Source: Candidatus Eiseniibacteriota bacterium (lineage in GTDB: Bacteria; Eisenbacteria; RBG-16-71-46; CAZAMP01). Taken from it: 64,000 nt of DNA. The position numbers and the translations under genes are program-made. Positions 2,326 through 33,367 of the stretch are shown here, in pieces. Under the pieces are notes generated by a model. The model made no database searches. It was given only the letters and a program-made list of their open reading frames with translations, and was not told the DNA's origin. Every line of letters starts with the position of its first letter. The stretch's first letter is position 1. The stretch covers positions 1,664,001 to 1,728,000 of the forward strand of contig OZ245046.1 of assembly GCA_965224245.1 (NCBI GenBank), in the 5' to 3' direction.

Positions 2326-3030
2326 ATGAAGCGGATTGCTATGGGTGTGGTTGCTGCGGCGACCCTTTTCGCAATTCCGGCAGGTGCGCAGCCATATCCG
2401 TACACGCTGGACATGCACTTCCAGCCGCCGTCGTACGTCGGCTGCACCGAGGGGGCAGTTCAGGACGTGGCGCTCAGCTGCGGCGTGATCAACCCGAACG
2501 CGATCGACGTCGGCGCGTTCGCGCCGAACTTCTGCTGGTTCATCATCGGCGGCGTTCCCGACGGTGCCGGTCCGGGTGCCCCGGGCGGTATCGGCGGTGT
2601 GCAGTTCGGCATCCAGTACGACGCGAGCGTCGTTCTCGGTGGCTCGTTCACGCTGTGCACCGGTGGCTCGGAGATTCCGCAGAACGATGCCGGCGGCACG
2701 TGGCCAGCCTCCGGAACCGGCAACGCGATTACCTGGGGTGGCGGCTGCTACCTGGTGACCGACAACCCCGACGGCGCGACCAAGATCGGCTTCCTCCCGA
2801 TCAATCCGGGCTCGGCCGGTGAGATCCGCTTCATCGAGGACCCGCGCATCGGCACCGCGCAGGCCGCCGGCTGTGACGCCGCGATCTCGCGAATCTGCCG
2901 CCAGTCGATGGGTATCGGCGACGCCACGGTCCCGGGCACGCTGGGTGAGGCCAAGTGCGGCTTCCTCTGCCCCGTTCCGGTCCAGGAAGCCAGCTGGGGC
3001 TCGATCAAGAGCATCTACGGCGACCACTAA
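2326..3030 (+). CDS. Secreted Cys-rich hypothetical protein with C-terminal SWGxIKxxY tag
   Basis: Signal peptide MKRIAMGVVAAATLFAIPAGA, RBS-like AGGGGGG, ends PVPVQEASWGSIKSIYGDH, terminator follows. Paralog of 32687..33367. Confidence 0.85.
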   Translation: MKRIAMGVVAAATLFAIPAGAQPYPYTLDMHFQPPSYVGCTEGAVQDVALSCGVINPNAIDVGAFAPNFCWFIIGGVPDGAGPGAPGGIGGVQFGIQYDASVVLGGSFTLCTGGSEIPQNDAGGTWPASGTGNAITWGGGCYLVTDNPDGATKIGFLPINPGSAGEIRFIEDPRIGTAQAAGCDAAISRICRQSMGIGDATVPGTLGEAKCGFLCPVPVQEASWGSIKSIYGDH

Positions 3031-3054
3031 GACCGGTTCGTTCGAGTCAGTTTG

Positions 3055-3085
3055 GAGCGGCGCCCTCGGGGTGCCGCTCTTTTTT
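3055..3085 (+). terminator. Rho-independent terminator
   Basis: Hairpin GAGCGGCGCCC-TCG-GGGTGCCGCTC followed by TTTTTT, 25 nt after the stop at 3030. Confidence 0.9.
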
Positions 3086-3123
3086 GTTGTGCCCTCGGGT
3101 TCGCGCCCTCGCGTTTCCCGGTC

Positions 3124-3581
3124 TCACGTCAGAAGCACGCCGCGAGACACCGTGCGGTAGCGCGCGTTGTCGGGATGGCGCGCGATGAGCCGGCGCTCCT
3201 CCACCTTCGCCTTCCACACGTAGAAAGCCACCGACGCCCCCGCGACGAGCACGACGGCCAGGGTGGCCGCATCAGCGCCGTTCCCATCGAACCACCCACG
3301 GCGGCGGTGTACATCGGATGACGCAGGTGCCGGTAGATGCCGCTCGTCACGAGTCGTGCATCCTCGCGGGGCGTGGGTGCCACCCGAAAGGCGCGTCCGA
3401 GCGCAGCGAAGGCCGTCACGGCCACGAGCAGCGATCCCGCGAGCATGGAAGCGCCCACGACGCGAAGCGCGCTCAGAGCCTCTCTGGCGGTCTCGCGGGG
3501 TACGATCGCGGGTCCGGCCTCCGTGGCGGCAGACGCCACGAGTGCGCCGACGAGCACGAGCTGAACGAGGGCGTACGTCAT
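3124..3581 (-). pseudogene. Isoprenylcysteine carboxylmethyltransferase/PEMT-family membrane protein with an apparent frameshift near 3268
   Basis: LVTSGIYRHLRHPMYT motif in the annotated frame. The family-like C-terminus (TLAVVLVAGASVAFYVWKAKVEERRLIARHPDNARYRTVSRGVLLT*) lies in another frame, ending at TGA 3126-3124. Confidence 0.7.
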
Positions 3582-3670
3582 GTGACGCAGTCTACCGGTG
3601 TGGCCGCGGCGGTCGCCAGCCGGGCCGGTCGGTCTCCTCGCTCTCCTCCAAATCCCCCGGGTAGCTGGTG

Positions 3671-3676
3671 TATAAT
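3671..3676 (+). promoter_or_regulatory. Possible sigma70 -10 box
   Basis: Perfect TATAAT in a GC-rich intergenic gap about 45 nt upstream of the ATG at 3722. No clear -35. Confidence 0.35.
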
Positions 3677-3721
3677 TCCCGTTCGTTGCCCCGACACCAC
3701 GCTCGCCGATGAAGAGGTTCG

Positions 3722-5686
3722 ATGTCGACTCGAACGCTCAGCACCTTGCCTTCCGTCGCCGTCGCGGCCGTGGTCGTGGCTGCCGCATCGCAGGCGGACG
3801 GGGCCGATCTCGAGGTTCTCGTTCCCATGCGCGACGGCGTGGGACTGGCCACCCAGGTGTTCTTTCCGGACGACGGCTCCAGCTGGCCCGCCATACTCTC
3901 CCGCACGCCGTACGACATCGAGAGCGACGTCATCGCCGACCCCGAGTGGATCGGGTTCGTGACGAGCCGCGACTACGCTTACGTCATCCAGGACACGCGG
4001 GGCCGCTTCGCGTCCGAGGGAGCCGACTCGGTCTTCTGGACCGACGGCTGGGGCGCGCTGCAGGACGGCTACGACACGATCGAGTGGATCGCCGCGCAGC
4101 CCTGGTGTGACGGCAACGTCGGCATGCACGGCGGCTCCGCGCGCGGCATCGTGCAGTACCTGGCCGCGGGAGCCGCGCCGCCTCACCTCAAGGCCTGCGT
4201 CGTGCGCGCCGCCACCGAGGACTTCTACGACAACGCGTTCTTCCAGGGCGGAGGCTATCGCGAGTCGCTCGTCCAGGGCTGGTTCGACTCGATCGACAAC
4301 CCCGAGATGGCGGCGTTCTACTCCGCGCACCCGGTGCGAACCGAGTTCTGGGACCAGGTGGATCTGGGTGCACGCGCCGCGAGCGCACAGGTGCCGATTC
4401 TCAACATCGGGGGCTTCTACGGGGTCTTCGGGGAGTCGGCCATCGATGCGTTCCGGGCGCTGGAGTTCGGCGGTGGCCCCGGTGCCCTCGGGAACCAGCG
4501 TCTGGTGATCGGACCGTGGACGCACGACGGCATCGAACGCTTCGATCAGGGCGAGCTCACCTACCCGGAGAACTCCTACTACGGCACGAACACGCTCCGC
4601 TGGCGGTGGTACGACCGCTGGCTGAAGGGCATCATGAACGGCGTCGACGAGGAGCCCGCCGTCGACTTCTACCTGATGGGAGACCCGGACGATCCGCTGG
4701 CCCCCGGCAACCTGTGGATCTCCTCCGACGACTTCCCGCCCGACGTCGTCGCCACGCCGTACTACTTCCACACCGGCGCGTCGGGCGCACCGTTCGGCCT
4801 GGAGACGACGCCGGCGGAGGTGTCGGACGATGGGTTCTGGTACAGCCACGACCCCGCGACGCCGGTCGCCACCCGCGGCGGCCGGAATCTCGAGCTCCCG
4901 AGCGGCCCCTACGATCAGCGCCCGGTCCACGCGGGGCGGAGCGACATCCTGTCGCTCCGCACGTCTCCGCTCACCGAGCCGGTGATCGTCGCGGGAGAGA
5001 TCCGGGTGCGCTTCTGGGCGGAGTGCTCCACGCCGGACACCGACTGGTGCGCGAAGCTCATCGACGTGTATCCGGATGGACGCGAGATGCTGGTGACCGA
5101 CGGCATCCTCCGTGCTCGCTTTCGCAACGGATTCGATCACGAGGAGCTCGTGGTGCCGGGCGAGGTGCACGAGTACGAGATCGACCTCTGGTCCACCGCC
5201 CTGGTGTTCGCGACCGGCCATCGCATCCAGGTCTCCCTGAGCGGCTCGAACAACCGGCGCTTCGCGATCAATCCGAACAACGGCCTTCCGTTCGGCCAGT
5301 CGACGCCGGTCCAGGTCGCCATCGTGCGCGTGCGGGCCGACGCGACGTACCCCAGCCACGTCCTCCTTCCGGTCGCGACCGATGACATCATCGTCGCGAC
5401 GCCGCCGTCCTCCGGCCGGCCCTCTGCCATCCTGCGCGTGTCGGCGAGCCCGGCCCGGCGCGTCGTGCTGACGGCGAGCGGCGACGTCGTGCCCGACCGG
5501 GTGTCGGTCTACGACACGATGGGACGTCTCGTGCGCACGCTGTCCCCGACCTTCCGCGACGGGGGCGCGCGCTTCGTCTGGGACGGCGTCTCGCGGACCG
5601 GCGCGCGCGCGGCGCCGGGCGTGTACTGGGTGCGCGCCGCCGCGGGCACGCGCGACTGGACCCGGTCGGTCGTTCTCCTTCGATAG
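3722..5686 (+). CDS. CocE/NonD family (peptidase S15) serine hydrolase, secreted, with C-terminal FlgD-Ig-like domain
   Basis: VPMRDGV.LAT, RTPY, QDTRGRFASEG, DGYDTIEWIAAQPW.DGNVG, GGSARG nucleophile elbow, IGPWTH; tail VYDTMGRLVRTL...WDG...APGVYWVR. Confidence 0.9.
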   Translation: MSTRTLSTLPSVAVAAVVVAAASQADGADLEVLVPMRDGVGLATQVFFPDDGSSWPAILSRTPYDIESDVIADPEWIGFVTSRDYAYVIQDTRGRFASEGADSVFWTDGWGALQDGYDTIEWIAAQPWCDGNVGMHGGSARGIVQYLAAGAAPPHLKACVVRAATEDFYDNAFFQGGGYRESLVQGWFDSIDNPEMAAFYSAHPVRTEFWDQVDLGARAASAQVPILNIGGFYGVFGESAIDAFRALEFGGGPGALGNQRLVIGPWTHDGIERFDQGELTYPENSYYGTNTLRWRWYDRWLKGIMNGVDEEPAVDFYLMGDPDDPLAPGNLWISSDDFPPDVVATPYYFHTGASGAPFGLETTPAEVSDDGFWYSHDPATPVATRGGRNLELPSGPYDQRPVHAGRSDILSLRTSPLTEPVIVAGEIRVRFWAECSTPDTDWCAKLIDVYPDGREMLVTDGILRARFRNGFDHEELVVPGEVHEYEIDLWSTALVFATGHRIQVSLSGSNNRRFAINPNNGLPFGQSTPVQVAIVRVRADATYPSHVLLPVATDDIIVATPPSSGRPSAILRVSASPARRVVLTASGDVVPDRVSVYDTMGRLVRTLSPTFRDGGARFVWDGVSRTGARAAPGVYWVRAAAGTRDWTRSVVLLR

Positions 5687-5785
5687 CCGACCCGGTGCGC
5701 GTCGGCGCGAGGGCCGATCGGGGATGCCCACGACGCCGACGTGGGGTAGTCTCGACCTCCGATCCCGTTACCGGCCCTGGGGACG

Positions 5786-8635
5786 ATGAAGCGAGCGCCG
5801 ATGATCCGAACCCTCTACGTCGTCTTCTTCCTGTCGGGGATGTCGGCGCTCCTGTTCGAGACGCTGTGGTTCCGCCTGGCGGGGCTCACGTTCGGCAACG
5901 GCGTGTGGGCCAGCAGCATCGTGCTGGCCAGCTTCATGGCGGGCCTCGCACTCGGGAATGCGCTGGCGGCCCGCCACGGTGAGCGGATCGCCGATCCCGT
6001 GCGCGCCTATGCGGTGCTCGAGCTCCTGATCGGGGGCATCGGATTCGGGCTCGTGCTCGTGTTTCCGTTTCTGAACGTGCTCCTCTCCTCGATCTTCCAT
6101 CCGCTGGTCGGGAACTCGCTGGCGCTCAACCTGGTCCGCCTCGCCGGCGCGTTCGTGCTCATGCTCGTGCCTGCCTCGGCGATGGGCGCCACGCTGCCGC
6201 TCATGGTGAAGGGGCTCCGCAGCGCACGGACCCCGTTCGGACAGCGCCTGGGAATGCTCTACGGCTGCAACACGCTGGGCGCCGTGGCGGGTGCGCTGGC
6301 CGGCGAGATGGTGCTGATTCACCTGCTGGGGCTCCGGGGCTCCGGGCTCGTCGCCCTCGGCGCGAACGTCCTCGCGGCCGCGGTCGCGCTTCGCGTCGCC
6401 CGTCTCCTCCGGCGCGAGACCGGGCCCGACGCCGCGCGGCCGGACGCCGTCCAACCACGCCCGCTCACCGCCCGCAGTCGGGGCCTTCTGGCCGCCGCGT
6501 TCATGTCGGGCGCCGTTCTCCTGGCGCTCGAGGTCGTCTGGTTTCGATTCATGCTGCTGTTCACGTTCGGGACGAGCCTCGTGTTCTCGGTCATGCTCGC
6601 GGTGGTGCTGGCCGGCATCGGCATCGGGGGAACGGCGGCGTCCCGATGGCTCCGCGCACGGGCGCCCGACCGCGTGCTCCCCGCCGTCGCGTGCGTCTCC
6701 GGAGTGCTCGTGGTGGGTGGGTTCGCGCTCTTCGCGTCCCCCCAGCTCGGGGTCACGCTGAGCTACGTGCGCGACGACCTCGGCTGGGTGACCGCCGCGC
6801 GCGCGCTCGGGCTGATGTTCCCGGTGTCGCTCGCGTCGGGTGTCCTCTTCACGCTGATCGGCGCGGCTCTCCACGCGGAGATCGGCTCCGAGACGCGGTC
6901 GGCCGGTCTCCTGACGCTCTTCAACACGGTCGGCGCGATGCTGGGCGCGCTCCTGGCCGGGTTCGTCCTCCTGCCGCTCTGGGGCATGGAGCGCTCGTTC
7001 CTGGCGCTCGCCATCGCGTACGTCGCGGTCGCCGCGTTCACGCTCGTGCCCCACCCCACCGTGTTCCGACGCACGCGGGCGCGCGTCCTGGTGCCCGCGG
7101 TGATCGCGCTCGGGGCCAGCCTGGTCGCGTTTCCGTTCGGGGCGCTCGGCCGGCACGTGTTCCCGCGGATCGCCGAGTCCAGTGTGAACGGTCCCCACGA
7201 GATCGCGCTCGTGCGCGAGGGCCTCACCGAGACGATCCTCTACGTCCGCCGCGACAAGTTCGGCCTGCCGTTCTTCCACAAGCTCCTGACGAACGGCCAC
7301 GCGATGGCGGCGACCAACACGCACTCCCAGCACTACATGAAGCTCTACGTGTACCTGCCCCTCGCCGTGCATCCCGGGATGCGCGATGCGCTCCTGATCA
7401 GCTACGGGTGCGGTCAGACGGCCAAGGCGCTGACCGATACCGACGAGCTCGACCGCATCGACGTGGTCGACATCTCACGGGACATCCTCGAGGCCACCGA
7501 GATCGTGTTCGACGAGGTCGAGACGTCTCCACTCCGGGATCCCCGCGTGCACGTGTTCGTGGAGGACGGGCGGTTCTTCCTGCAGACGACGACGCGCACG
7601 TACGATCTGATCACCGGCGAGCCTCCGCCCCCGACCGCCGCCGGCACCGTCAACCTTTATTCGCGAGAGTACTTCCAGCTCATCCACGATCGCCTGAAGC
7701 CCGGTGGCATGGCCACGTACTGGCTTCCCCAGCACGCGCTCGACCAGGACGGCGCGCGCGCGATCATCCGCGCGTTCACCGACGTGTTCGAGGAGTCCTC
7801 GCTGTGGATCGGATGCGGGCAGGACTGGATGCTCCTGGGGGTGCGAGGCCCGCATGCGACCGTGAGCGAGGAGCGCTTCGGGCGCCAGTGGCGAAGTCCG
7901 GTCGTGGCGCCCATCCTCCAGGATCTCGGCTTCGAGTACCCCGAGCAGCTCGCCGCCTACTTCATCGCCGATCGTCCGGCCCTTCGCGACCTCGTGACCG
8001 GCACCGAGCCGGTCACCGACGATCGACCCCAGCGGCTCTCCCCGCCGGGGCCGGTGCGCCTCGAGTCGGCGTACGCGACGCTGATCGAGCCGGCCGCCGC
8101 GCGTGACCGGTTCGCCCGGAGCGACCACGTCCGGCGCCTCTTCCCCGACGGCGTACGGCGGCGCGGCGTGTCGTTCTTCGACTTCCGCTACGAGCTCCAC
8201 GACGGACTCTCGCCGTTCAAGGTGGGGCCACGCGGCGCGAGCGGCCTCGCGGGCGTCCACCACGTGATCACGGGCTCGCCGTTCCATACGCTCGTGCTGT
8301 GGCTTCTCGGATCGAGCGTGCGCGAGCAGCAGATCGTGGCCACCGTCGTCCAGGGCGGGGTCACCCACCCCGCGCTCGCGGCCAAGCTCGGTGACCTGGC
8401 CCTGGCGCGGCGCGACTTTCCGGCCGCGGTCGAGCACTACCGGATCGCGTGCGACGCCTTGCCCGATCAGGTGGAGCTTCTCCTGCGCCTCGTGCTGGCG
8501 CTGTGTCTGGCGGAGCGGCGAGACGAGGCCCAGGCGCTGGTGCACGCGCGCGCGGCCGTCGTCCGTCTCGGGGGACGTGAGGACTGGGTGTTCCTCGCGG
8601 GCACGTACGGGCTCCGGCTCCCGGGTCCGGGTTGA
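5786..8635 (+). CDS. Fused MFS-like membrane domain / spermidine synthase-like SAM-dependent transferase with C-terminal TPR-like region
   Basis: FFLSGMSALLFE..W, LYGCNTLGAVAG, repeated TM block, then LLISYGCGQT, DVVDIS, EDGRFFL, YDLITGEP, NLYSREYF...LKPGG. Confidence 0.85.
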   Translation: MKRAPMIRTLYVVFFLSGMSALLFETLWFRLAGLTFGNGVWASSIVLASFMAGLALGNALAARHGERIADPVRAYAVLELLIGGIGFGLVLVFPFLNVLLSSIFHPLVGNSLALNLVRLAGAFVLMLVPASAMGATLPLMVKGLRSARTPFGQRLGMLYGCNTLGAVAGALAGEMVLIHLLGLRGSGLVALGANVLAAAVALRVARLLRRETGPDAARPDAVQPRPLTARSRGLLAAAFMSGAVLLALEVVWFRFMLLFTFGTSLVFSVMLAVVLAGIGIGGTAASRWLRARAPDRVLPAVACVSGVLVVGGFALFASPQLGVTLSYVRDDLGWVTAARALGLMFPVSLASGVLFTLIGAALHAEIGSETRSAGLLTLFNTVGAMLGALLAGFVLLPLWGMERSFLALAIAYVAVAAFTLVPHPTVFRRTRARVLVPAVIALGASLVAFPFGALGRHVFPRIAESSVNGPHEIALVREGLTETILYVRRDKFGLPFFHKLLTNGHAMAATNTHSQHYMKLYVYLPLAVHPGMRDALLISYGCGQTAKALTDTDELDRIDVVDISRDILEATEIVFDEVETSPLRDPRVHVFVEDGRFFLQTTTRTYDLITGEPPPPTAAGTVNLYSREYFQLIHDRLKPGGMATYWLPQHALDQDGARAIIRAFTDVFEESSLWIGCGQDWMLLGVRGPHATVSEERFGRQWRSPVVAPILQDLGFEYPEQLAAYFIADRPALRDLVTGTEPVTDDRPQRLSPPGPVRLESAYATLIEPAAARDRFARSDHVRRLFPDGVRRRGVSFFDFRYELHDGLSPFKVGPRGASGLAGVHHVITGSPFHTLVLWLLGSSVREQQIVATVVQGGVTHPALAAKLGDLALARRDFPAAVEHYRIACDALPDQVELLLRLVLALCLAERRDEAQALVHARAAVVRLGGREDWVFLAGTYGLRLPGPG

Positions 8636-8643
8636 CGGACCGG

Positions 8644-9891: not shown

Positions 9892-9906
9892 TCGGCTAGG
9901 CCTCCA

Positions 9907-11157: not shown

Positions 11158-11170
11158 CGCGGTTCGCCCG

Positions 11171-18576: not shown

Positions 18577-21195
18577 ATGCCGGATCGGGACATCACCACG
18601 TCGGAGCCGGGCTCACGCCCCGCGTCCCTCGTCGCGCTCATGCTGGTGTTCTTCGCCTCGGGCGCCGCCGCGCTGATCTACGAGGTTCTGTGGCTGAAGG
18701 AGCTCGGGCGACTGTTCGGGGTCACCGCGCACTCGGCCGCCGTGACCCTCAGCGTGTTCTTCCTCGGGCTCTCGGCCGGCGGTGCGGTCTGGGGTCGCCG
18801 CGCTGCCGGCGTACGCTCTCCGCTTCGCACCTATGCGGCGCTCGAGATCGGCATCGCGATCACGGCGTGTCTCTACTTCGGGCTCGTCGATCTGTTCCAC
18901 CTGATCTACGGGCCACTGCTCGCCAAGACGGGCTCCAGCGGCACCCTGGCCACGGGGATCAAGCTGGCGCTCGCCACGATCGTGCTGTTCCCACCCGCGT
19001 TCTTCATGGGCGGGACGTTGCCCGTGATGGCACAGCTCCTGGTCAGGCGGGCCGACGAGCTCGGGCGACGCGCGAGCCTCCTCTATGCGGTGAACACGAT
19101 CGGCGCCGCCTCCGGGGCGTTTCTGGCGGGCTTCCACCTGCCCCGGGTCCTCGGCTACGCGGGAGCGTACTCGGTGGCCATCGGAATCAACGTCGTGGCG
19201 GCCGCGACGACGTTCGCCTGGAGTCGGCGCTGGCCGGCTCCACCGCCCGTCGTGCCCGAGCCCCGACCGACCGCGCCGGGTCACCCGGCCGAGCCCGGAG
19301 GGTTCTCCCTTCGCGCGCTCGGAGTCGTCGCGGCGGTGTCCGGCTTCGTAACCCTCGGCCTCGAAGTACTCTGGACGCACATGTTCGCGCAGATTCTGCA
19401 GAACTCCGTCTACACCTTCTCGGCCGTGCTGACGCTCTTCCTGGGAGCGCTGGCGCTGGGCTCGGTCCTCGCCGGCCGGCTCTGCCGCCTTCGGACCGTG
19501 TCGCCCCCACTGGTGCTGGGGGCGCTGATGATCGTGTCCGGTCTCCTGGTCGCATGGACGCCGCCGACCCTCTTCGCGCTCAGCTCGGGGCTCGACGAGC
19601 TCGGCCGCGGCCTCGGCTGGAACGCGTACGTCTCGCGGGTGTTCGTGGTCGTGGGCGCGGTGCTCGTGGTTCCGGTGACCGTGATGGGCGCCGTCTTCCC
19701 CTACCTGATGAAGATCGGCGAGCGCGGCATGGTCAGCGCCGGACGCACGGTCGGCTCGCTCGCCTCGATCAACACCGCCGCCGCGATCGTGGGCTCCGTC
19801 GTGGCCGGCTTCGTGCTCCTCGAGCGGTGGGGAACCTGGACGAGCATCCGCGCCCTCGCCGTCACCTACCTCGTCCTGGGCGCCGTCGTCGTCCGCGGGC
19901 GCTCGCGCGCGGCGCTCGCCGTGCGTGCCCTGGGCATCGCCGGGGCCGTGGTGTTCGGGCTCCTCGTGCGATGGGACGATCTCACCGACGTCCGGCTCGA
20001 CGCGGCGCGTCACGAGACGGTCGTCCGGACCTGGCAGGGACCGCACGGCACGGTCTCGGTCGTGGACGCGGACGGGAGCCTCCGGCTGAAGGTGAACAAC
20101 ACGTACACGCTCGGAAGCAGCCTGTCGCACCTGAACCAGCGACTCCAGTCTCAGATCCCGCTGCTGCTCCACCCCGACCCGCGATCGGTCTTCTACCTGG
20201 GTCTGGGGACCGGCGTCACCGCGAGCGGCGCGCTCGCGTTTCCGGTGGACGAGGTCGTGGTCTGCGAGCTCAACGGCGACGTGATCGAGGCCAGCCGGAC
20301 CTGCTTCGCACCCTGGCTGGAAGGCCTCTTCGGCGACCCCCGGGTGTCGGTCCTGGAGGAGGACGGGCGGGTGTACCTGGCCACCTCGACCGACACCTTC
20401 GACGTCGTGATCGCGGACATCTTCCTGACCTACCGAGCCGGCGTCGGCGCCCTCTACACGCGCGAGCACTTCGAGGCCGTGCGCGACCGCCTCGCGCCCG
20501 GGGGGCTCTTCGCACAGTGGCTTCCGATGTTCGATCTCACCGAGGAGGAGTTCGGCATCATCGTACGCACGATGCTGGAGGTGTTCCCGGAGGTCACGCT
20601 GTGGCGCCGGGGCTTCTCGCCGAAGTTCCCGGTACACCTGCTTCTCGGGCACGAGTCGACCGCGCGGCTGGATGTGACCCGGTTCCGCGACGGTCTCGAC
20701 GCCCTCGACGCGTCGGGGGTGCTGGGCCGGAACGTCTGGATTCAGAACATCCCGCTGGCCGCGTACGTGGCCAACCTCGGGCGGCTCCGCGACGCGTTCC
20801 ACGGCTACGCCGTCAGCACCGACGACCGGGTGCCGCTCGAGTACCTGGCCCCGGTGAGCGATCGGGACGCCGAGGTCGGACGCGCCACCGTGCTCGCGTG
20901 GGACGCGCTGGTCGCCTTCGAGGCGGGCCTCGTGGCCGCGTCGCCCCCGGAGGTCGACCCGTACCTCGCGTCGGTCCCGCCGGACATGCGGCGTCAGGTA
21001 CGCGCCGGTCTGGCGTTCTACGGCCACGAGACCCATCGGCGGATGAGGGATTCCGAGGCGGCGGCGCGATACCTGGTGCGCTACCGCGAGCTCGTGGCCG
21101 CGAGCGGCGGGGCCGGGGCCCGTTCGCCCGCGGCCGGGCCGTCCGCCGACGACGAGGGTTCGGGGGAAGATTCCGGCCCCGGGGCACCGGACTGA
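18577..21195 (+). CDS. Fused MFS-like membrane domain / spermidine synthase-like protein (second copy)
   Basis: FFASGAAALIYEVLW, LYAVNTIGAA, FYLGLGTGVTA, VCELN, EDGRVYL, FDVVIAD, LYTREHF...LAPGG.FAQWLP. Confidence 0.87.
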   Translation: MPDRDITTSEPGSRPASLVALMLVFFASGAAALIYEVLWLKELGRLFGVTAHSAAVTLSVFFLGLSAGGAVWGRRAAGVRSPLRTYAALEIGIAITACLYFGLVDLFHLIYGPLLAKTGSSGTLATGIKLALATIVLFPPAFFMGGTLPVMAQLLVRRADELGRRASLLYAVNTIGAASGAFLAGFHLPRVLGYAGAYSVAIGINVVAAATTFAWSRRWPAPPPVVPEPRPTAPGHPAEPGGFSLRALGVVAAVSGFVTLGLEVLWTHMFAQILQNSVYTFSAVLTLFLGALALGSVLAGRLCRLRTVSPPLVLGALMIVSGLLVAWTPPTLFALSSGLDELGRGLGWNAYVSRVFVVVGAVLVVPVTVMGAVFPYLMKIGERGMVSAGRTVGSLASINTAAAIVGSVVAGFVLLERWGTWTSIRALAVTYLVLGAVVVRGRSRAALAVRALGIAGAVVFGLLVRWDDLTDVRLDAARHETVVRTWQGPHGTVSVVDADGSLRLKVNNTYTLGSSLSHLNQRLQSQIPLLLHPDPRSVFYLGLGTGVTASGALAFPVDEVVVCELNGDVIEASRTCFAPWLEGLFGDPRVSVLEEDGRVYLATSTDTFDVVIADIFLTYRAGVGALYTREHFEAVRDRLAPGGLFAQWLPMFDLTEEEFGIIVRTMLEVFPEVTLWRRGFSPKFPVHLLLGHESTARLDVTRFRDGLDALDASGVLGRNVWIQNIPLAAYVANLGRLRDAFHGYAVSTDDRVPLEYLAPVSDRDAEVGRATVLAWDALVAFEAGLVAASPPEVDPYLASVPPDMRRQVRAGLAFYGHETHRRMRDSEAAARYLVRYRELVAASGGAGARSPAAGPSADDEGSGEDSGPGAPD

Positions 21196-23969: not shown

Positions 23970-23973
23970 TCCG

Positions 23974-26859: not shown

Positions 26860-28882
26860 CGAGGTGGGGTCGCCGCTCCCCTCCGGCGGTCGTGAACGCC
26901 CCGCCGAGCACGAGGGAGTCGCCGGTCGCCTGGATCGCGAACACGGCGGCGTCGGGCCCGCTCCCGATGGCGCTCCACGCGTGCCCGTCCCACGACGCGA
27001 CGTTGCGGATCGACGCGTCGGCCCGGTGGACGAACAGGCCGGCCACCACGAGGCCCTTCCGCCAGGGCGCGAGCGCATGAACGCGGGGCGTCCGGCCGTC
27101 GGGCGGCGCGGACAGGCTCTCGTCGAGGGCGCCCCATCGTGAGCCGGTCCATCGGGCGACGAGCGGCGCCCGCGTGGGGCCCGACCGTTCGAAGAAGCCG
27201 CCGGCCACCAGCGATCCGTTCCACTCGCCGAGCGCGAGCACGCCCCCGTCGAGCCCGTGCCCGAGGGCCTGCCAGCGCACACCATCCCAGAGCGCGACGC
27301 CGGGCGCGGGGATCCCGCCCACCGAACCGAACGCGCCGCCGGCGATCAGCTGGTCGCCCCGCGCGAGAAGCGCGTACACGCGCCCGCCGGGCGCCCCGCC
27401 GATCGGGCGCCAGGTCTCGCCGTCGAACCGCGCGAGATTGGTCGCCCCCCCGGCGTGGAGATCGCCGCCGGCCACGAGATCACCCCGATGCGAGGCCAGC
27501 GCGAACACGGTCCCCTCGACGCCGTTTCCGATCGGGGACCAGCGCGTGCCATCCCATGCGGCCACGCGTGCCGCGGTCGCACCGCCGGCGCGCGCGAACG
27601 AACCGCCCGCCACGAGCTGCCCCGCGTGAACGACCAGGGCGTGAACGTCCCCGTCGACGCCGTCCCCGAGCCCCCGCCACGTCCGGCCATCCCAGCTCGC
27701 GACGTGATGCGCGTCGACGTCGCCGGCTCGCTGGAACGCACCCGCCGCGACCAGGCGGCCGTCGTATCGCGCCAGCGCGAGGACCGCTCCGTCCACGCTG
27801 CCCGTCCCGCCGAGCGCGCGCCAGTGATCGTTCTCGACGATCGCGACGTGGGACGACGTGTGCGCGCCGGCGGTCCGGAAGCGTCCGCCGATCACGGGGT
27901 CGGATCGGAACGACCCCACGGCGAACACGGCGCCGTCGGCGCCGCCGTCGATCGCGTCCCATCGATGACCGTTCCACGCCGCGACGTGCCGCACCGATCG
28001 CGAACCCGAACGCTCGAACCATCCGCCGGCCACGAGCCGGCCGGCGATCACGGCCAGCGCCTCCACGCCGTCGTCGAAGCCGTCACCCAGCGGCTCCCAG
28101 GCCCCTCCGGTCCAGCGGGCCACGCTCGCGCAGGGGACGCCGCCGGCACGCGCAAACCATCCGCCCGCCACGAGACCGGCGGACGTGCTGGCGAGCGCGG
28201 TGACCGCATCGTCGAGGCGACTCGCGAGCGGACGCCAGGCGACCCCGGTCCATCGCGACACGTAGTGAGGACCGTCGGGGCCGTCGAACTCGCCGCCGAC
28301 GACGATGACGCCGTCGTGCGACACGATCGCATGGGCGGTACCCGACGGGGGGCGTCCGAGCGGTCGCCACGCGGCGCCGTCCCAGCGAGCAACCGACACG
28401 GACGTGTCGCTCCCCTCGAGGTGCATGCGCCCCACCGCGACGAGATCGGAGCCGATGCGCGCGAGGTCGTGCACGTCACCGGACAGCTCCGGTCCGAGAG
28501 GCATCCACGCCGCGCCGGTCCAGCGGGCCACGGCGTGCCACGCGGGATCGTCGCCGATCCGGAATCGACCCGCGATGGTGATGGCCGCGCCATCGGACGC
28601 GGCGACCCGCACGATTCCGTCGACGCCGTCTCCGATCGCGCTCCACGTCCGGCCGTCGAAGCGGGCGATGCCGCGGGCGCGGCGCGCGCCGGCCGCGGTG
28701 AACGCTCCGGCGACGACGAGCGCGTCCCGGTGCTCGATCACGTCCCAGACCGGGCTGCTGACGCCGTCGGGGGTGAAGCGCGGGGACCAGGACGGGGGCT
28801 CGTCGGAGGAGGCGGCCCGGGCGAGGCCGCACGACGAGAGCACGATCGCGAGAATGTACCGCCGCATCCGAGCACGCCTCAT
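26849..28882 (-). CDS. Secreted beta-propeller repeat protein
   Basis: Signal peptide plus about a dozen roughly 50-aa repeats of LxAGGxF...VAxWDGxxWxxLGxGxDGxVxAL. Confidence 0.8.
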   Translation of the reverse strand: MRRARMRRYILAIVLSSCGLARAASSDEPPSWSPRFTPDGVSSPVWDVIEHRDALVVAGAFTAAGARRARGIARFDGRTWSAIGDGVDGIVRVAASDGAAITIAGRFRIGDDPAWHAVARWTGAAWMPLGPELSGDVHDLARIGSDLVAVGRMHLEGSDTSVSVARWDGAAWRPLGRPPSGTAHAIVSHDGVIVVGGEFDGPDGPHYVSRWTGVAWRPLASRLDDAVTALASTSAGLVAGGWFARAGGVPCASVARWTGGAWEPLGDGFDDGVEALAVIAGRLVAGGWFERSGSRSVRHVAAWNGHRWDAIDGGADGAVFAVGSFRSDPVIGGRFRTAGAHTSSHVAIVENDHWRALGGTGSVDGAVLALARYDGRLVAAGAFQRAGDVDAHHVASWDGRTWRGLGDGVDGDVHALVVHAGQLVAGGSFARAGGATAARVAAWDGTRWSPIGNGVEGTVFALASHRGDLVAGGDLHAGGATNLARFDGETWRPIGGAPGGRVYALLARGDQLIAGGAFGSVGGIPAPGVALWDGVRWQALGHGLDGGVLALGEWNGSLVAGGFFERSGPTRAPLVARWTGSRWGALDESLSAPPDGRTPRVHALAPWRKGLVVAGLFVHRADASIRNVASWDGHAWSAIGSGPDAAVFAIQATGDSLVLGGAFTTAGGERRPHLVSR

Positions 28883-28956
28883 CGAGCGTCCGGCATCGAC
28901 CGTCGGCGCCGGACCGATCGCGGCATCGTACGTGAACCGGATCGGTTGTCCAGGGA

Positions 28957-30444
28957 ATGTCGGCCGCGTGCCGGCGGGCTTTCGCCGAGACGCTCTCGGG
29001 AGCCCCGTGCTATCGTTGGCGGTCGTCAGATCTCGGAGGCACGATCATTCGAACGGGCGATCACAACACGGCGCGTCTCGGGATCGTGGCCTCCATGCTG
29101 GGAGCGATCACGTTCGGCTGCTCGGCCGACCGCCCCGACATCATCCTGATCTCGATCGACACGCTCCGGCCCGATCACCTGGGTCTGTACGGCTACGAGC
29201 GCCCCACGTCACCGAACCTCGATCGCTGGTTCGCCGATGCCGCGCGCTTCGAGCGCTGCTACGCGACCGAGGCCAGCACGTCTCCGAGCGTCGTGAGCAT
29301 GCTGAGCGGGCGTTACCCGGACGAGCATCGCGTGCGCCTCCTCTATCAGCTCGTCCCCCCCGATCTGGAGCTGGTGACCGACTGGCTCCCCGACGAGTAC
29401 CAGACGGCGGCGGTGGTCTCGAACATCGTCCTGACCGACGAGGCCAGTGGGCTGGCCCGGTACTTCCAGTTCTACGACGACTTCGTGGACGAGAAGGAGC
29501 CCTACCGCGTCAACTACGAGCGGAACGCGCGGCGGACCACCGACGCGGCGCTCCGCTGGCTGCGGGAGGCCCGGGACCCCGAGCGCCCGCTGTTCCTGTG
29601 GGTCCACTACATCGACCCCCACGGTCCGTACCATCCACCGGACGACTGGACGCCCTCGTTCACCCACGTCGGCTTCGTGCCGCTGGAGACCGAACGCGTG
29701 CTCGCTTATCAGATCGAGCCCGGGATCGACGACGCTCTGACCTACGTCGATCGCTACGACGAGGAGATCGCGTACATGGACGCGCACGTGGGGCGACTCA
29801 TGGACGTTTACGCGGAGACGCGACCCATCGACGAGGCGTTCGTCGTCTTCACGTCCGATCACGGCGAGAGCATGATCGAGCACGAGAGGTGGTTCACACA
29901 CGGCTATCACGTGTACGACGAGATCGCGCGCGTTCCGCTGCTGATCCGCGGCCCCGGCATCGCCGCGGGTTCCCACGACGCGCTCGTGTCGGGCATCGAC
30001 GTCGTTCCGACGATTCTCCGCATGGCCGGTGTCTCGGTCCCCTCGGAGCTTCGCGGGTACGACCTCGCCGATCCCGGGGCGGTGCCCCGCGATCGGATGG
30101 TCTTCACCGAGGGTACCCAGGAGCAGTACTCCCTTCGCGCGGCGGTGCAGGGCCAGGGCAAGTGGATCGCGCTGATCGCGAAGGGGTCGTATCAGGTTCT
30201 GGACCGGCGCTTCTACGATCTCGCCGGGGATCCCGAGGAGATGACCCAGATCTCGTGGGACGATCGCGAAGGGGGCGCCGGCGAGGCCGGCACCCGCCTC
30301 CTGGAGCTGATCGCCTCGGATCCCGATCCCGGAGGGCTGCCCGACGCCTACAGCGCCGGGATGCGGCTGCGCGCGCCGAAGATCGCGCCGAGGGTGTCCG
30401 AGGAGGACCTCGAGCGACTCCGATCCCTCGGCTACGTCAACTGA
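28957..30444 (+). CDS. Sulfatase-like hydrolase/transferase (alkaline phosphatase superfamily)
   Basis: ILISIDTLRPDHL..YGY.RPTSPN.D, FLWVHYIDPHGPY, YDEEIAYMD, TSDHGE, VPLLI, RLRSLGY. Start uncertain. Confidence 0.88.
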   Translation: MSAACRRAFAETLSGAPCYRWRSSDLGGTIIRTGDHNTARLGIVASMLGAITFGCSADRPDIILISIDTLRPDHLGLYGYERPTSPNLDRWFADAARFERCYATEASTSPSVVSMLSGRYPDEHRVRLLYQLVPPDLELVTDWLPDEYQTAAVVSNIVLTDEASGLARYFQFYDDFVDEKEPYRVNYERNARRTTDAALRWLREARDPERPLFLWVHYIDPHGPYHPPDDWTPSFTHVGFVPLETERVLAYQIEPGIDDALTYVDRYDEEIAYMDAHVGRLMDVYAETRPIDEAFVVFTSDHGESMIEHERWFTHGYHVYDEIARVPLLIRGPGIAAGSHDALVSGIDVVPTILRMAGVSVPSELRGYDLADPGAVPRDRMVFTEGTQEQYSLRAAVQGQGKWIALIAKGSYQVLDRRFYDLAGDPEEMTQISWDDREGGAGEAGTRLLELIASDPDPGGLPDAYSAGMRLRAPKIAPRVSEEDLERLRSLGYVN

Positions 30445-30501
30445 TGCGGCGGGTGACGCGCTCGCCTCGTCGGCTCACGCGTCACGTGCAGGTCGGGCCG
30501 G

Positions 30502-31188
30502 CTACTTGCCGTACGTGTCCTTGATCCGTCCCCAGCTCGTCTCCTGCACCGGAGTCGCGTCGGCGTACACCAGCGTCAGGTCGTCGATCATCGCGCGCGG
30601 CTTCGAGTACTCGTCGCCGTAGGTCGCGTAGAACACCAGCTGATCGAAGTCCGCCCCCGATACCTCGAGCGTCGTCACGGCCACGTTGTCGCGGCCTCCG
30701 AGGTCGGAGATCACGAACGAATCGCTGGCGACCACCGACCCGCCGTCGAGAGCATCCAGGTGAAACTCGATGCCTCCCCAGACACCGTTCTCGTAGTACG
30801 CCAGATCGAACGATGCGGACGTGACCACGCCCCCGAGATCCATGGTGACGTTCGACAGGCCGCCGATCGAGAGGTTGTCTCCCGGAACCCACGCGATGCC
30901 GAACGTCAGGGCGTTCACCGGGCTTCCGTACCCGGGGAAGTCCGCGTACAGGAGACCGGCGTTCTCCACGATGAACTCGTCGTCCGGCGCGGGTTCGAAC
31001 GTCTCGCCGCTGGGAAACACGCCGGATACCGTGTTCAGGTCGTGGTAGGTCACGCCCATGTGCATGAGCGGGTCGCCCTGGGGTCCTTCGGTCAGGTCTT
31101 CGTAGTCGATGACGATGGTGCCGGCCCCGGCCCCACCGGCGATGAGCAGGACGGCCGCGGCCGAGGCGAGCGTGGTGATCGCATTCAT
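30502..31188 (-). CDS. Secreted hypothetical protein with C-terminal SWGxIKxxY tag
   Basis: GGAGGAG RBS, signal peptide MNAITTLASAAAVLLIAGGAGA, beta-rich acidic domain, ends TPVQETSWGRIKDTYGK. Confidence 0.82.
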   Translation of the reverse strand: MNAITTLASAAAVLLIAGGAGAGTIVIDYEDLTEGPQGDPLMHMGVTYHDLNTVSGVFPSGETFEPAPDDEFIVENAGLLYADFPGYGSPVNALTFGIAWVPGDNLSIGGLSNVTMDLGGVVTSASFDLAYYENGVWGGIEFHLDALDGGSVVASDSFVISDLGGRDNVAVTTLEVSGADFDQLVFYATYGDEYSKPRAMIDDLTLVYADATPVQETSWGRIKDTYGK

Positions 31189-31387
31189 GGATGACACTCC
31201 TCCAGAGTTGTAGACGCTGCGTGGGCTCCGCGAGATGACCGATCCCGGAACGGGACGACACACGGAGTCGAGTCGTCGCCCGGCACCAGGAACGGCGAGC
31301 GGGAGTCTATCACGATCGGCTCCAGGGCGTGCGGGCGCGCGGGCGCATCCGGAGCACCCGGGAGCACTCCGTCACCGTCATGTCGGG

Positions 31388-32437
31388 CTAGTCGGTCCGT
31401 TCCAGAAGCGCGTCCTCCGCGGCGTACCGGGCCTCCAGGTCGTCCGGCGGCGCCGGCATGTTCTCGCGTTCCCAGGCGACCGTCCGGGCGAGCGCGTCGG
31501 GTCGCGGCGTCACCTCCGCGTAGCCGAGCTCCTCCCGGATCCGGGACGAGTCGGCCACCAGATGCTGGTCGGTGCGCATGCCGGGCTCGAGGTGCGGCAG
31601 GCCGTCCGATGCGGACACGACCCGGACGTCCCCCCGCCATCCGGCCGCGCCACCGATGGTGGCCGCCCACTCGGACTCGGTCAGTGCGCGCGCCTCCCCC
31701 ACGTTGTAGGTGTGATCTCCGGGTTCCCGGTCGATCACCGCGCGAACGATGGCGGCCGCCATGTCCGCGACGTAGCCCCGCGTCACGCGCCATCCCGCCA
31801 GCGCGCGGTCGAGGAGCAGCGCCGGGCGCGCGTCCAGCATCGGCCGCAGGTAGGCGCTCATCCGGTGCTGTCGATCTCGCGGGCCGTACACCATGGGGAG
31901 GCGGAGGACGACGGTCTCGACGCCGGGGGCACTGCGGTACGCGCGCTCGACGAGGATCTTGTCGTAGTCGTCGAGGTGGCGATGGGGATCGTCCGCCCCC
32001 CGGGAGCTCGCCCCGCGGTACGGGTAGAGCGCCCTCCGGAGCTCGGACTCCTCGGTCAGCGGCAGCTCCTGTGTGGGTCCGTCCTCCGAGCCGTTCACGA
32101 GGCCATAGGCGCGATACACGTCCTGGCTGCTGAGGACGACGATCCGGCGCGCGAGGTGACCGAGCTCGGTGAGCACGGCCTCGGCGTCGGACTCGACGAC
32201 GGCGATCATGTCGAGGATCACCTCGGGGGCGAACGCGTCGAGCGGGTCGCGGAGCTCGGCGAGGTATCCGCGGTCACCGAGCCGACACGGCGGGCATCGG
32301 ATGTGGCGGGTCGCCGCGGGCAGCTCGGCGATGGTGGTGCCCCGATGGAGCACCGCCACCTCGTGTCCGAGCGCGTCGAGCCCGGCCACCACGTGCGGGC
32401 CCATGAACCCGGTACCGCCGATGATCAGGACTCGCAT
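31388..32437 (-). CDS. NAD-dependent epimerase/dehydratase family (atypical SDR)
   Basis: RVLIIGGTGFMG, LSSQDVY, YDKILVE, LRLPMVYGP, YNVGE. Confidence 0.9.
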   Translation of the reverse strand: MRVLIIGGTGFMGPHVVAGLDALGHEVAVLHRGTTIAELPAATRHIRCPPCRLGDRGYLAELRDPLDAFAPEVILDMIAVVESDAEAVLTELGHLARRIVVLSSQDVYRAYGLVNGSEDGPTQELPLTEESELRRALYPYRGASSRGADDPHRHLDDYDKILVERAYRSAPGVETVVLRLPMVYGPRDRQHRMSAYLRPMLDARPALLLDRALAGWRVTRGYVADMAAAIVRAVIDREPGDHTYNVGEARALTESEWAATIGGAAGWRGDVRVVSASDGLPHLEPGMRTDQHLVADSSRIREELGYAEVTPRPDALARTVAWERENMPAPPDDLEARYAAEDALLERTD

Positions 32438-32686
32438 GCGCGACCGCCTCCCGGGGGCTCACCGCATCGTGACCCGGCGCCCGTTCCGGGTGCTCTACGA
32501 GCGAGAGCCACCGCCGTTGCGGACGATTCCGCGACCGCGCCGCATCGCGGCCCCCGTGCACGTGATCCGTCACACCGCCGGGGCCGCGCGACACCAGGGC
32601 CGGCGTGTCCACTCTCCCACTCACGTCAGGGTCTGTTACCCTCGTCTTCTGGACAGCCGGGGCCGCGACCCACGAGGAGAGCCACC

Positions 32687-33367
32687 ATGACCCGCATGCC
32701 ACCGATCGCCGCATTCGTCCTGCTCGCACTGGGCACCGGGTCCGAGGCGCGTGATCTCGACATCTGCTGGATGGTGAACGTCGCGGTGACCCTCCCGAGC
32801 TACGCCGGCTGCGCCGACCCGGACCTCGTCGCGCTCGACGAGCTGGACTGCGTCGACGTTCCGATCGGGGCCTCGGTCGGGCCCGGCTTCGTCTGGGTCG
32901 TGATCAACCACCTCGACGGATTCGAGAACGGGATCGGGGGCGCCCAGTTCGGCCTCTCCCACGACCTCGGGTTCGTGCCGTGGACACTGTGTACCGGAGG
33001 ATCGGAGATTCCGATGGACGGCTGGCCGGCCAGCGGAACCGGCAACGCCGTGGTCTGGACCGACGGGTGCTACGAGCCGCCGAGCGAGACGGCACGCGTC
33101 GGGTTCCTCTCGGTGGCCGAGACCTCCAGCGGCGAGATCTTCGTCGTGGGAGATCCCCGGATCGGCGACACCATCTTCGCCGACTGCAACGCGGATCTCT
33201 TCTCGATCTGTCACTCGAGCAGCGGCGGTGGCTCGCTGACCGACCTGTACCTCGCCTGCGAGCCCTGCGGCAAGTCCGGGTATCCCTGCTACGACGGCAC
33301 GCCGGCCGAGGCGACGACGTGGGGCCGGCTCCGGTCCGTGTTCGGGCTCCCCGACGGGCCGCGCTAG
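32687..33367 (+). CDS. Secreted Cys-rich hypothetical protein with C-terminal TWGxLRxxF tag; paralog of 2326..3030
   Basis: GAGGAG RBS, signal peptide, GIGGAQFG, LCTGGSEIP, WPASGTGNA, DPRIG; ends TPAEATTWGRLRSVFGLPDGPR. Confidence 0.82.
   Translation: MTRMPPIAAFVLLALGTGSEARDLDICWMVNVAVTLPSYAGCADPDLVALDELDCVDVPIGASVGPGFVWVVINHLDGFENGIGGAQFGLSHDLGFVPWTLCTGGSEIPMDGWPASGTGNAVVWTDGCYEPPSETARVGFLSVAETSSGEIFVVGDPRIGDTIFADCNADLFSICHSSSGGGSLTDLYLACEPCGKSGYPCYDGTPAEATTWGRLRSVFGLPDGPR

Follow-up and report, generated by a model that had tools for sequence, protein, structure and literature searches.

A short C-terminal peptide as a probable address label of exported proteins in a Candidatus Eiseniibacteriota bacterium and allied candidate phyla

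In the 6.9-Mb genome of a Candidatus Eiseniibacteriota bacterium, 109 ORFs are closed by one short tag. We consider it rather likely that this tail serves to localise Sec-exported envelope or surface proteins, as a portable C-terminal sorting or anchoring tag, and we make this claim in general form only. Like a generic portable sorting tag, the tail is strictly C-terminal, is carried by many unrelated bodies with signal peptides and lies outside the body fold. It is exclusive of or interchangeable with T9SS C-terminal domains (CTDs), PEP-CTERM and dockerin-like modules, and it is conserved over at least three phyla. The initial annotation of the window (the whole analysed stretch of 64,000 nt) had proposed a sorting or anchoring signal. 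Position, portability and exclusivity speak for that proposal, and the function itself we infer from the position and the swaps.

Three tagged genes were found in the window. The first (2326..3030, + strand) encodes a Cys-rich, beta-rich secreted protein, one of 13 paralogues according to translation, the signal-peptide rule and clustering. Read from the ATG at 2326 it begins with a signal peptide (MKRIAMGVV...), with TTG 2308 or ATG 2233 as possible alternative starts, and it ends in CPVPVQEASWGSIKSIYGDH before the stop codon at 3028-3030 (+). Its tag, VPVQEASWGSIKSIYGDH (2974..3027, +), consists of V-P-V, three residues, S-W-G-x-I-K-x-x-Y and then three extra residues. The body gave no match in Pfam or NCBIfam, and its AF2 model had a pLDDT of 68.5. 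Near this gene lies one for an X-Pro dipeptidyl peptidase (S15) with a T9SS-type CTD (3722..5686, +; Pfam PF02129 and PF08530; local CTD HMM), an example of the co-clustering of tagged and CTD genes. The third tagged gene (32687..33367, +) is a paralogue of the first, the two bodies being homologous with 38% identity. Its signal peptide, MTRMPPIAAFVLLALG, begins at 32687, and its C-terminus, GTPAEATTWGRLRSVFGLPDGPR, carries an extended form of the tag in which Arg is still last (TPAEATTWGRLRSVFGLPDGPR, 33299..33364, +). The longer reading frame (710 aa, listed from 31235) is an artefact of high GC content; the gene really starts at about 32687.

The second tagged gene (30502..31188, − strand) encodes 228 aa from the ATG at 31188, with a signal-peptide-like N-terminus, a CBM-like beta-sandwich body and the C-terminus ATPVQETSWGRIKDTYGK. 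Its family shows 60-79% identity across Eisenbacteria- and Krumholzibacteria-labelled records. In the AF2 model (pLDDT 88.6) body residues 24-208 were above 90, and Foldseek related the body to CBM27, CBM4 and gingipain cleaved-adhesin folds with TM values of 0.40-0.56. The tag, TPVQETSWGRIKDTYGK (30505..30555, −), was read from the translation; in the model a linker (209-218) and a helix (219-227, WGRIKDTYG) are detached from the body at a pLDDT of 54-59. This body falls in a separate BLASTP cluster from those of the first and third genes and has a different predicted fold, which confirms the initial annotation on its unrelatedness. The three near-identical tails reported there were likewise all found in the sequence; the minus strand of the second gene had gone unstated.

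Across the genome the signature reads [TV]-P-[VTI]-x3-[ST]-W-[GSA]-x-[ILV]-[KR]-x2-[YF]-(R)-end, which covers all three window tails. The whole tag has 16-25 residues, of which 16 form the conserved part, and is composed of a variable linker, the fixed Pro-containing triplet, three free residues, the block from [ST]-W to [YF] and usually an Arg at the extreme end. Matches to the full signature numbered 109, and 105 were C-terminal (no more than 15 residues from the stop) and 4 internal, as expected of a sorting signal. A shorter motif, W[GSAT]x[ILVM][KR]xx[YFW], was run against all 34,121 stop-to-stop ORFs of at least 100 aa in the genome. It occurred 142 times, 109 of them within 15 residues of the stop, compared with 6/49 for the reversed motif and 2/64 for a W-to-F control motif. 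The C-terminal pattern is therefore far beyond chance level. In the position table, Pro at −6 was conserved in 94% of tags and Ser or Thr at −1 in 98%; Lys or Arg at +4 reached 100%, a value fixed by the search regex. The terminal residue was Arg in 50% of tags vs 17% of other genes, and it was aromatic in about 18%. Among 77 orthologues, TP....TWG.VK.LYR was retained and the linker varied. Conservation of the polar positions and of this pattern fits recognition by a protein.

The bodies that carry the tag are diverse. The first 48 fell into 21 unrelated BLASTP clusters, and their Pfam types include beta-helix, multihaem cytochrome, VWA, LTD and AhpC/TSA proteins, which bears out a portable tail instead of a feature of one domain family. 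In a Coatesbacteria genome the tagged bodies were NHL propellers, one Temptin_C domain and proteins with no recognised domain. Signal peptides were called for 88/109 tagged ORFs (81%) and 373/462 T9SS-CTD ORFs (81%), against 255/600 random other genes and 247/600 length-matched ones (41-42%); the rule, which tests all possible starts over an ORF's first 60%, is crude and has a high false-positive rate (41% background), so that only the contrast counts. Tagged ORFs are thus enriched in signal peptides to the same degree as T9SS cargo.

Exclusivity with FlgD-Ig tails, which the initial annotation had suggested checking, holds: the local CTD HMM found 462 CTD ORFs in this genome, and 0/109 tagged ORFs carried such a domain. 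Within the genome, 60 paralogues of tagged bodies end in variant tags or in FlgD_ig or Por_Secre_tail CTDs. Swaps were also seen between phyla. The best 120 of the 270 homologues of window protein 2 at E≤1e-5 were classed by the tail that follows a common ...IDDLT[IL] junction; 61 had the tag, 5 a variant of it, 33 a PEP-CTERM-like tail, 8 a dockerin-like tail ('GC-type dockerin') and 10 an extra domain, and 3 were truncated. The dockerin-like tails came from Planctomycetes-labelled records, and one matches PF00404.

The tag was present in most sampled genomes of three phyla (138/151, 34/41 and 12/12) and also in a Coatesbacteria genome, which confirms the occurrence in FCB-type candidate phyla that the initial annotation had named. 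In the second phylum, 5 of the 7 apparent tag-negatives bear diverged tags, as does one further family that appeared tag-free. No tag-free sister group for phylogenetic profiling was found among the sampled genomes. None of the tag-bearing organisms is cultured, going by record titles.

No model in Pfam or NCBIfam (20.0, June 2026) matched the tail, and a literature search found nothing resembling it. Among 48 tagged proteins, neither library gave a match to T9SS CTDs (TIGR04183, PF18962, PF13860), to TIGR02595 or PF07589, or to the dockerin PF00404, such tails occurring only in other homologues. LPXTG, GlyGly-CTERM, MYXO-CTERM and other curated NCBIfam CTERM models did not match either, and the position table has no hydrophobic span, in accord with the earlier statement that the tail has no transmembrane helix. 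Position, secretion, spread over domain families and separateness from characterised systems thus all came out in favour of the initial annotation. The outer-membrane-protein beta-signal, which is read in the periplasm, is also a short C-terminal motif whose last positions include an aromatic residue and a Gly (polar-x-G-x-x-aromatic/hydrophobic-x-aromatic). However, its spacing misfits the tag, the last residue of the tag is more often Arg than aromatic, and tagged bodies are soluble folds, not barrels.

A close likeness is to the type A CTD of T9SS (TIGR04183 and PF18962, here also PF13860 FlgD_ig). Both modules lie at the extreme C-terminus of signal-peptide proteins, are portable across bodies, occur in the same genomes and gene neighbourhoods, are interchangeable on the same body families and share a basic last-residue bias (terminal Arg in 58% of CTD proteins). 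However, PMC4804311 and PMC10994853 describe the CTD as a beta-sandwich fold some 70-100 residues long, and the far shorter tag has no detectable sequence likeness to the CTD or to its upstream linker. That T9SS can accept signals of different classes, each served by a separate outer-membrane shuttle, has a precedent in type B CTDs with their dedicated PorP/SprF-like shuttles (PMC12618676). These CTDs are folded domains encoded next to the shuttle gene, whereas no barrel gene recurs beside tagged genes; the genome has seven PorV/PorP/FadL-like barrels.

In the localisation reading that we favour, the protein would be exported by Sec, and after removal of the signal peptide the folded body would leave the tail freely exposed. 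The tail would then be read by an outer-envelope protein, and this reading may fix the fate of the protein, either attachment to the cell surface or passage of the outer membrane. As a tentative sub-hypothesis, we prefer a reader that is part of the T9SS secretion and attachment machinery or works alongside it; the tag would then be a minimal substitute for the CTD of roughly 80 residues. This genome encodes SprA and PorU together with an adjacent PorV-like gene. SprA was found in 4/5 other tag-bearing genomes tested and CTD matches in 5/5, including the SprA-negative one. The sub-hypothesis also draws on the CTD genes that directly neighbour 39% of tagged genes, against 16% of other genes, and on the terminal-Arg bias common to both kinds of protein. 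The co-occurrence with SprA and CTD cargo is weak evidence, because T9SS is widespread in any case in the groups to which all sampled tag-bearing lineages belong. According to section 7 of PMC10994853, recognition of the T9SS signal depends on a binding site that fits its size and shape, not on sequence motifs. An element of 9 residues is too small to fill a site of this kind, which counts against the sub-hypothesis, as does the lack of sequence likeness to the CTD. The genome also encodes three secretins, and proteins may therefore have further ways through the outer membrane. No candidate reader or machinery for the tag was found in the gene neighbourhoods of this genome or of a Coatesbacteria genome: nothing recurred beside tagged genes here except one S9 peptidase family, and the neighbours of six Coatesbacteria tagged genes had nothing in common.

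An unlikely alternative is that the tail is a docking peptide, a dockerin-like non-covalent plug into a receptor domain of a larger surface protein or scaffold, by which tagged proteins that are small and single-domain would be mounted on large proteins delivered by T9SS. It is consistent with docking that 8 of the best 120 of 270 homologues of window protein 2 have a dockerin-like module at the tag's junction, and tagged ORFs are short (median 299 aa vs 775.5 for CTD ORFs). Dockerin-type modules (PF00404) are also C-terminal and portable and put secreted proteins at the surface; they are, however, duplicated Ca-binding repeats of roughly 50-60 residues with cohesin as the known partner, and the tag is a single short peptide for which no partner is known. 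A CTD gene is the immediate neighbour of 39% of tagged genes and 16% of other genes, as docking would lead one to expect, but CTD genes adjoin each other equally often (40%), and no family is enriched among the CTD neighbours of tagged genes (8 vs 7.6 expected; 5 vs 3.3). Docking also leaves unexplained how tagged proteins cross the outer membrane.

Next among the unlikely readings is an anchor that needs no sorting enzyme, in which the tail, as an interfacial helix that binds membrane or LPS, would keep periplasmic proteins at a membrane face. C-terminal helices of PBP5 and the targeting sequences of MinD and FtsA are examples of membrane anchors, and Trp, Tyr, Lys and Arg, all present in the tail, are typical interface residues. 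In 2/2 AF2 models the tail was free of the body and helical from Trp to Tyr, and no machinery gene was found in the neighbourhoods, as such an anchor would predict. However, the helix has only about 8-9 residues at a pLDDT of 54-63, the helical hydrophobic moment of the tail (0.371) does not exceed the value for its residues in shuffled order (0.370 ± 0.016), and hydrophobicity averages about zero. Lipid binding does not call for the near-fixed Pro at −6, Ser or Thr at −1, small residue at +1 and terminal Arg, which are kept across phyla. An amphipathic anchor helix of the PBP5 or MinD type was rejected on moment and length, and the same values leave the initial description of the tail as a short amphipathic helix unsupported.

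It is very improbable that the tail is a cleavage or maturation site, at which a prolyl-specific peptidase would cut at T-P-V and free the body or a 14-residue peptide (propeptide, pheromone or RiPP-like). Such a site was suggested by the Peptidase_S9 family, 6/8 members of which lie no more than 3 genes from a tagged gene in this genome (0.8 expected), two of them directly upstream on the same strand, and by the S15 X-Pro peptidase that comes after window gene 1. At 30 loci of S9 homologues in 19 genomes (this one and 18 relatives), however, a tag was found within 1.5 kb only at this genome's own locus. Among 31 genomes searched, 12 had no match to the S9 query at E≤1e-40, yet the tag HMM matched 39/41 relatives sampled. 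The S9 link was thus not replicated in relatives, which weakens the cleavage reading. We give hardly any credence to a catalogued signal missed by the libraries, of the PEP-CTERM/exosortase type (TIGR02595, PF07589, PF09721) or another known CTERM: the genome has exosortase genes (scores against PF09721 of 218, 206 and 33 bits), PEP-CTERM-like tails replace the tag at the identical junction, and both are short with a Pro-containing triplet start and a basic end, but PEP-CTERM requires a transmembrane helix between motif and basic cluster together with an integral-membrane exosortase, NCBIfam 20.0 gave no family at E≤10 for any of 48 tails, and the genome has 8 classical PEP-CTERM ORFs of its own, two of them flanking one exosortase gene. 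Membership of PEP-CTERM was rejected on the lack of a hydrophobic run, the tail being interrupted by Lys or Arg at +4 and frequent Arg at +2 and +8.

Beyond the general localisation role, a 16-residue linear peptide alone may, although we hold this only tentatively, be a complete outer-membrane sorting signal in diderms. It would then be either a third class of T9SS signal, with a dedicated shuttle barrel and no folded CTD, or the signal for a new secretion and attachment route common to Eisenbacteria, Krumholzibacteriota, Coatesbacteria and allied phyla. If so, about 2% of the proteome would be addressed by it.

About 109 proteins carry the tag here, and in at least three candidate phyla with no cultured members it is found on tens of proteins per genome; such numbers define a large, coherent and so far unannotated share of the surface or secreted proteome, spanning lectin-like modules, beta-helix proteins, cytochromes and propellers. 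To our knowledge, every portable C-terminal tag decoded so far (LPXTG, PEP-CTERM, GlyGly-CTERM and the T9SS CTD) has led to a dedicated envelope machine. A tag with neither membrane helix nor folded domain should have a reader that differs from the known ones, and it offers a clean query for phylogenetic profiling of the missing machine. In practice, exported proteins and the ends of genes can be predicted from the 16-residue pattern in metagenome bins of high GC content, where ORF calling is poor. The tag is probably a new protein address label.

The window (contig C1, positions 1664001-1728000) belongs to G000, a Candidatus Eiseniibacteriota genome of 6.94 Mb with 68.6% GC in 27 contigs. The three near-identical tails reported in the initial annotation were all found in its sequence. 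Gene 1 (2326-3030, plus strand) ends in CPVPVQEASWGSIKSIYGDH, gene 2 (30502-31188, minus strand) in ATPVQETSWGRIKDTYGK and gene 3 (32687-33367, plus strand) in GTPAEATTWGRLRSVFGLPDGPR. Genes 1 and 3 are paralogous, with 38% identity, and the gene 2 body, described as unrelated, indeed formed a separate BLASTP cluster. A 710-codon ORF starting at 31235, ahead of gene 3, was rejected as a gene. The stretch of this frame in front of gene 3 (31235-32686) is Arg/Pro-rich, has no family and overlaps the opposite-strand start of gene 2; it looks like a high-GC open frame rather than a gene. Elsewhere, the window holds two large membrane-protein ORFs (5786-8635, 949 aa, and 18577-21195, 872 aa). Both contain a spermine/spermidine-synthase-like domain, and a GT2 glycosyltransferase and a DUF6798 protein are encoded nearby.

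When the originally proposed motif was loosened to WGx[ILVM][KR]xx[YFW], a search of 59,396 six-frame ORFs of G000 gave 56 matches, 48 of which were located within 15 residues of a stop. Comparison of paralogues showed that the Gly after Trp could be replaced by Ser, Ala or Thr, and W[GSAT]x[ILVM][KR]xx[YFW] was C-terminal in 109 of 142 matches. The controls were C-terminal in 6/49 (reversed motif) and 2/64 (W-to-F motif). Extended to its full length, [TVSI]P[VTIA]xxx[ST]W[GSAT]x[ILVM][KR]xx[YFWH], the motif was C-terminal in 105 of 109 matches, which bears out the proposed placement of the tag. Positions were tabulated on 109 tails, with W as position 0: T (50%) or V (33%) at −7, P (94%) at −6, V/T/I (89%) at −5, S (77%) or T (21%) at −1, G (44%), S (33%), A (15%) or T (8%) at +1, I/L/V at +3, K (82%) or R (18%) at +4, Y (82%) or F (15%) at +7, and R (47%) at +8, where 18% of the proteins end. 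The last residue was Arg in 50% of tagged ORFs of G000 and in 58% of proteins with a type IX secretion system (T9SS) C-terminal domain (CTD), versus 17% of 3,904 other genes. Tails extended by 3-15 residues still had a final Arg in 17/36 (47%). This bias may reflect something that both classes of protein need at their very end. Many tagged tails have two Cys residues, as CxxC or CxC, 2-6 residues upstream of the T-P-V triplet (window 2950-2975; ORFs L005, L008 and L038), and the pair recurs in tails from other genomes, for instance as CGECxxPV or CSDCxSPV. The two residues may form a disulfide staple closing the body or may be a component of the signal.

Once their tails had been removed, the first 48 tagged proteins fell into 21 BLASTP clusters, in agreement with the claimed portability of the tag on unrelated bodies. 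These comprised a Cys-rich family of 13, window genes 1 and 3 among them, a right-handed beta-helix family of 10, one family of four, three pairs and 15 singletons. Pfam matches on 45 tagged and the three window proteins included Beta_helix, multihaem cytochrome c, VWA, Lamin-tail domain and AhpC/TSA, with weak GEVED or P_proprotein matches; the majority had no match, and NCBIfam added nothing relevant on the full proteins. Tagged ORFs were short (median 299 codons stop-to-stop versus 775.5 for CTD ORFs). By a crude signal-peptide rule, 88/109 tagged and 373/462 CTD ORFs were positive, against 255/600 and 247/600 control genes, so that the expected enrichment was recovered. One tagged AhpC/TSA-like ORF, L012 (C1:4156967-4157389), lacks a signal peptide and begins partway through the thioredoxin fold, covering only profile positions 51-124; a frameshift or a truncation of the gene may account for this.

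AlphaFold2 modelled window protein 2 (77-row alignment) as a confident beta-sandwich at residues 24-208, with pLDDT above 90. Foldseek found similar folds among carbohydrate-binding modules and the adhesin domains of gingipains (TM 0.40-0.56). A low-confidence linker (209-218) is followed by a helix comprising exactly WGRIKDTYG, with pLDDT 54-59. Window protein 1 was modelled less well (pLDDT 68.5); there, residues 206-229 were irregular and a helix at 230-238 started at the Trp. Because a loose linker and a low-confidence helix recur in both models, the tail is predicted to lie outside either body fold. The tail's helical hydrophobic moment was no higher than that of shuffled residues, and the earlier description of an amphipathic helix was therefore dropped.

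The tail HMM (A1) matched 39/41 relatives, with 9-83 matches per genome outside f8, a family within the host phylum. In a sample of the host phylum, all of one class, 138/151 genomes matched at E<=0.001 (137/150 without G049, an unpublished genome with 44 matches on which none of the other results depends), and all 13 misses were in f8. Family f8 (0-2 matches) was rejected as a tag-free negative set, since 10/12 of its weak matches proved to be real C-terminal tags that had diverged upstream (TTTWGKIKxxYR). The exact DNA pattern for S-W-G-x-I-K-x-x-Y-R-stop, searched in one genome per GTDB species, gave at least 128 matches in at least 125 stretches; among the matches listed, 122/128 terminate a reading frame that is open for 58 codons or more within the stretch examined. 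Among their titles Candidatus Eisenbacteria predominated, followed by Krumholzibacteria(ceae), with one Coatesbacteria chromosome and single bins labelled 'Gemmatimonadota', 'Fibrobacteraceae' and 'Udaeobacter'. A 'Saccharibacteria' match (17 codons, 42% GC) looks like chance. Five of the matched genomes, checked whole, had 4, 17, 28, 29 and 8 HMM matches.

In the Coatesbacteria genome, a 2.3-Mb chromosome, six or more tagged genes end in [AV]xPxSWGx[IV]KALYR. In the phylum of the Krumholzibacteriaceae bin, 34/41 genomes matched at E<=1e-4. The seven HMM-negative genomes were rejected as a tag-free set because five had strict-pattern matches (22 in G177); none was found in G181 and G184, both possibly incomplete. 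All 12 genomes of the small phylum of the 'Gemmatimonadota'-labelled bin had 18-77 strict-pattern matches each, against 0-1 for the reversed pattern. Tagged genes are frequently in tandem. Arrays of 3 to 8 were observed with a period of about 0.6-0.9 kb, some with identical tail-coding DNA, in three other sampled genomes (G171:C2:376812-378025; G202:C68:2831-5144; G203:C1:3010563-3018486).

In the homologues of window protein 2 (the 120 best of 270 at E<=1e-5), the common body ends ...YSxPRxxIDDLT[IL], and the sequences diverge from a single junction. Among these 120, the junction is followed by the tag in 61, by a variant with Phe for Trp or His for Tyr in 5, by a PEP-CTERM-like tail in 33 (P0097 with PF07589), by a dockerin-like module in 8 (P0077 with PF00404) and by an extra domain of about 90 residues in 10; 3 are truncated. 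PEP-CTERM-like tails and dockerin-like modules thus occupy the same junction as the tag. The tagged homologues carried the source names Eisenbacteria, Krumholzibacteria and one 'Udaeobacter', and some non-tagged ones Planctomycetes or Phycisphaerae. More than any other observation, these swaps at one junction argue that the tail is functionally equivalent to known modules for sorting or anchoring. On balance, we infer that it probably directs localisation and is recognised by a protein of the envelope.

G000 has a T9SS. Its SprA ORF has 2,363 codons (540 bits summed), and PorU (469.6 bits, above the cut-off) adjoins a PorV-like barrel. Six further PorV/PorP/FadL-like barrels and a second C25 peptidase bearing its own CTD were also found. 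The genome encodes three secretins as well. A local HMM detected FlgD_ig / Por_Secre_tail-type CTDs on 462 ORFs, and in 457 the match reached to within 20 residues of the stop. The 462 ORFs are about one in ten of the crude gene list, a very large type IX secretome for a genome outside Bacteroidota. The mutual exclusivity of tag and FlgD-Ig tail raised initially held throughout, as none of the 462 was tagged. Sixty 'untagged' paralogues of tagged bodies carried either variant tags or a FlgD_ig / Por_Secre_tail CTD instead. On the crude list of 4,475 genes, a CTD gene was the immediate neighbour of 39% of tagged, 40% of CTD and 16% of other genes. Linkers upstream of CTDs bore no resemblance to the tag (by eye, 40 of 213 sampled).

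In the version that we prefer, which is possible but held only tentatively, reading of the tag would be linked to the T9SS. T9SS components or CTD cargo co-occurred with the tag in the tag-bearing genomes tested; this co-occurrence, the gene co-clustering, the interchange with CTDs and the common terminal-Arg bias favour the link. According to PMC10994853, PorV is contacted by a basic residue that is almost invariant and lies near the end of the CTD. Against the link, the same paper describes a CTD binding site selective for size and shape, and the signals of the T9SS are folded domains (PMC4804311). Class-specific shuttles, which the T9SS can employ according to PMC12618676, make a third T9SS signal class conceivable. 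The tail could instead be a docking peptide, which seems rather unlikely, or an anchor needing no machine, which seems unlikely.

The neighbourhoods, CTD neighbours and barrel conservation yielded no candidate for a protein reading the tag. The CTD proteins adjoining tagged genes in G000 showed no enriched family, and the neighbourhoods of the six Coatesbacteria tagged genes had no gene in common. A second PorV/FadL/UPF0164-like barrel, L190 (C1:2069177-2070265), is better conserved across phyla than the PorU-adjacent PorV. It showed 44-55% identity in six of eight genomes tested and was weaker in G041 (33%) and G045 (best match 36%, partial query). With 16,196 representatives at E<=0.001, its family is too large for a tag-specific reader. 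A Peptidase_S9 gene immediately precedes a tagged gene in the same orientation at C1:389691-391712 and at C1:1081498-1083966, and one of the two abuts its tagged gene. Six of the eight members of the family are near tags in G000, as would suit a prolyl-peptidase cleavage site. The proximity was not replicated (1/30 loci, G000's own; none in 18 relatives); Peptidase_S9 was rejected as a partner, and a cleavage site is very improbable.

A known family that was missed is hardly credible, as NCBIfam 20.0 assigned no family to any of 48 tails (E<=10) and nothing relevant to the full proteins. Pfam gave nothing on the tails. Full-text literature searches returned no paper with WGxIK-type motif strings and none linking Eisenbacteria or allied phyla with C-terminal sorting, only unrelated or Bacteroidota T9SS work. 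G000 encodes two to three exosortases together with eight ORFs of the classical PEP-CTERM type. One exosortase gene (218 bits to PF09721) lies between two classical PEP-CTERM genes at C1:4810237-4814560, and a second exosortase domain (C1:1609464-1610231) is in an 899-codon ORF about 55 kb upstream of the window. The C-terminal tag is real, large, multi-phylum and apparently undescribed. As tag, CTD and PEP-CTERM are all present in G000, at least three classes of C-terminal signal coexist in this genome.
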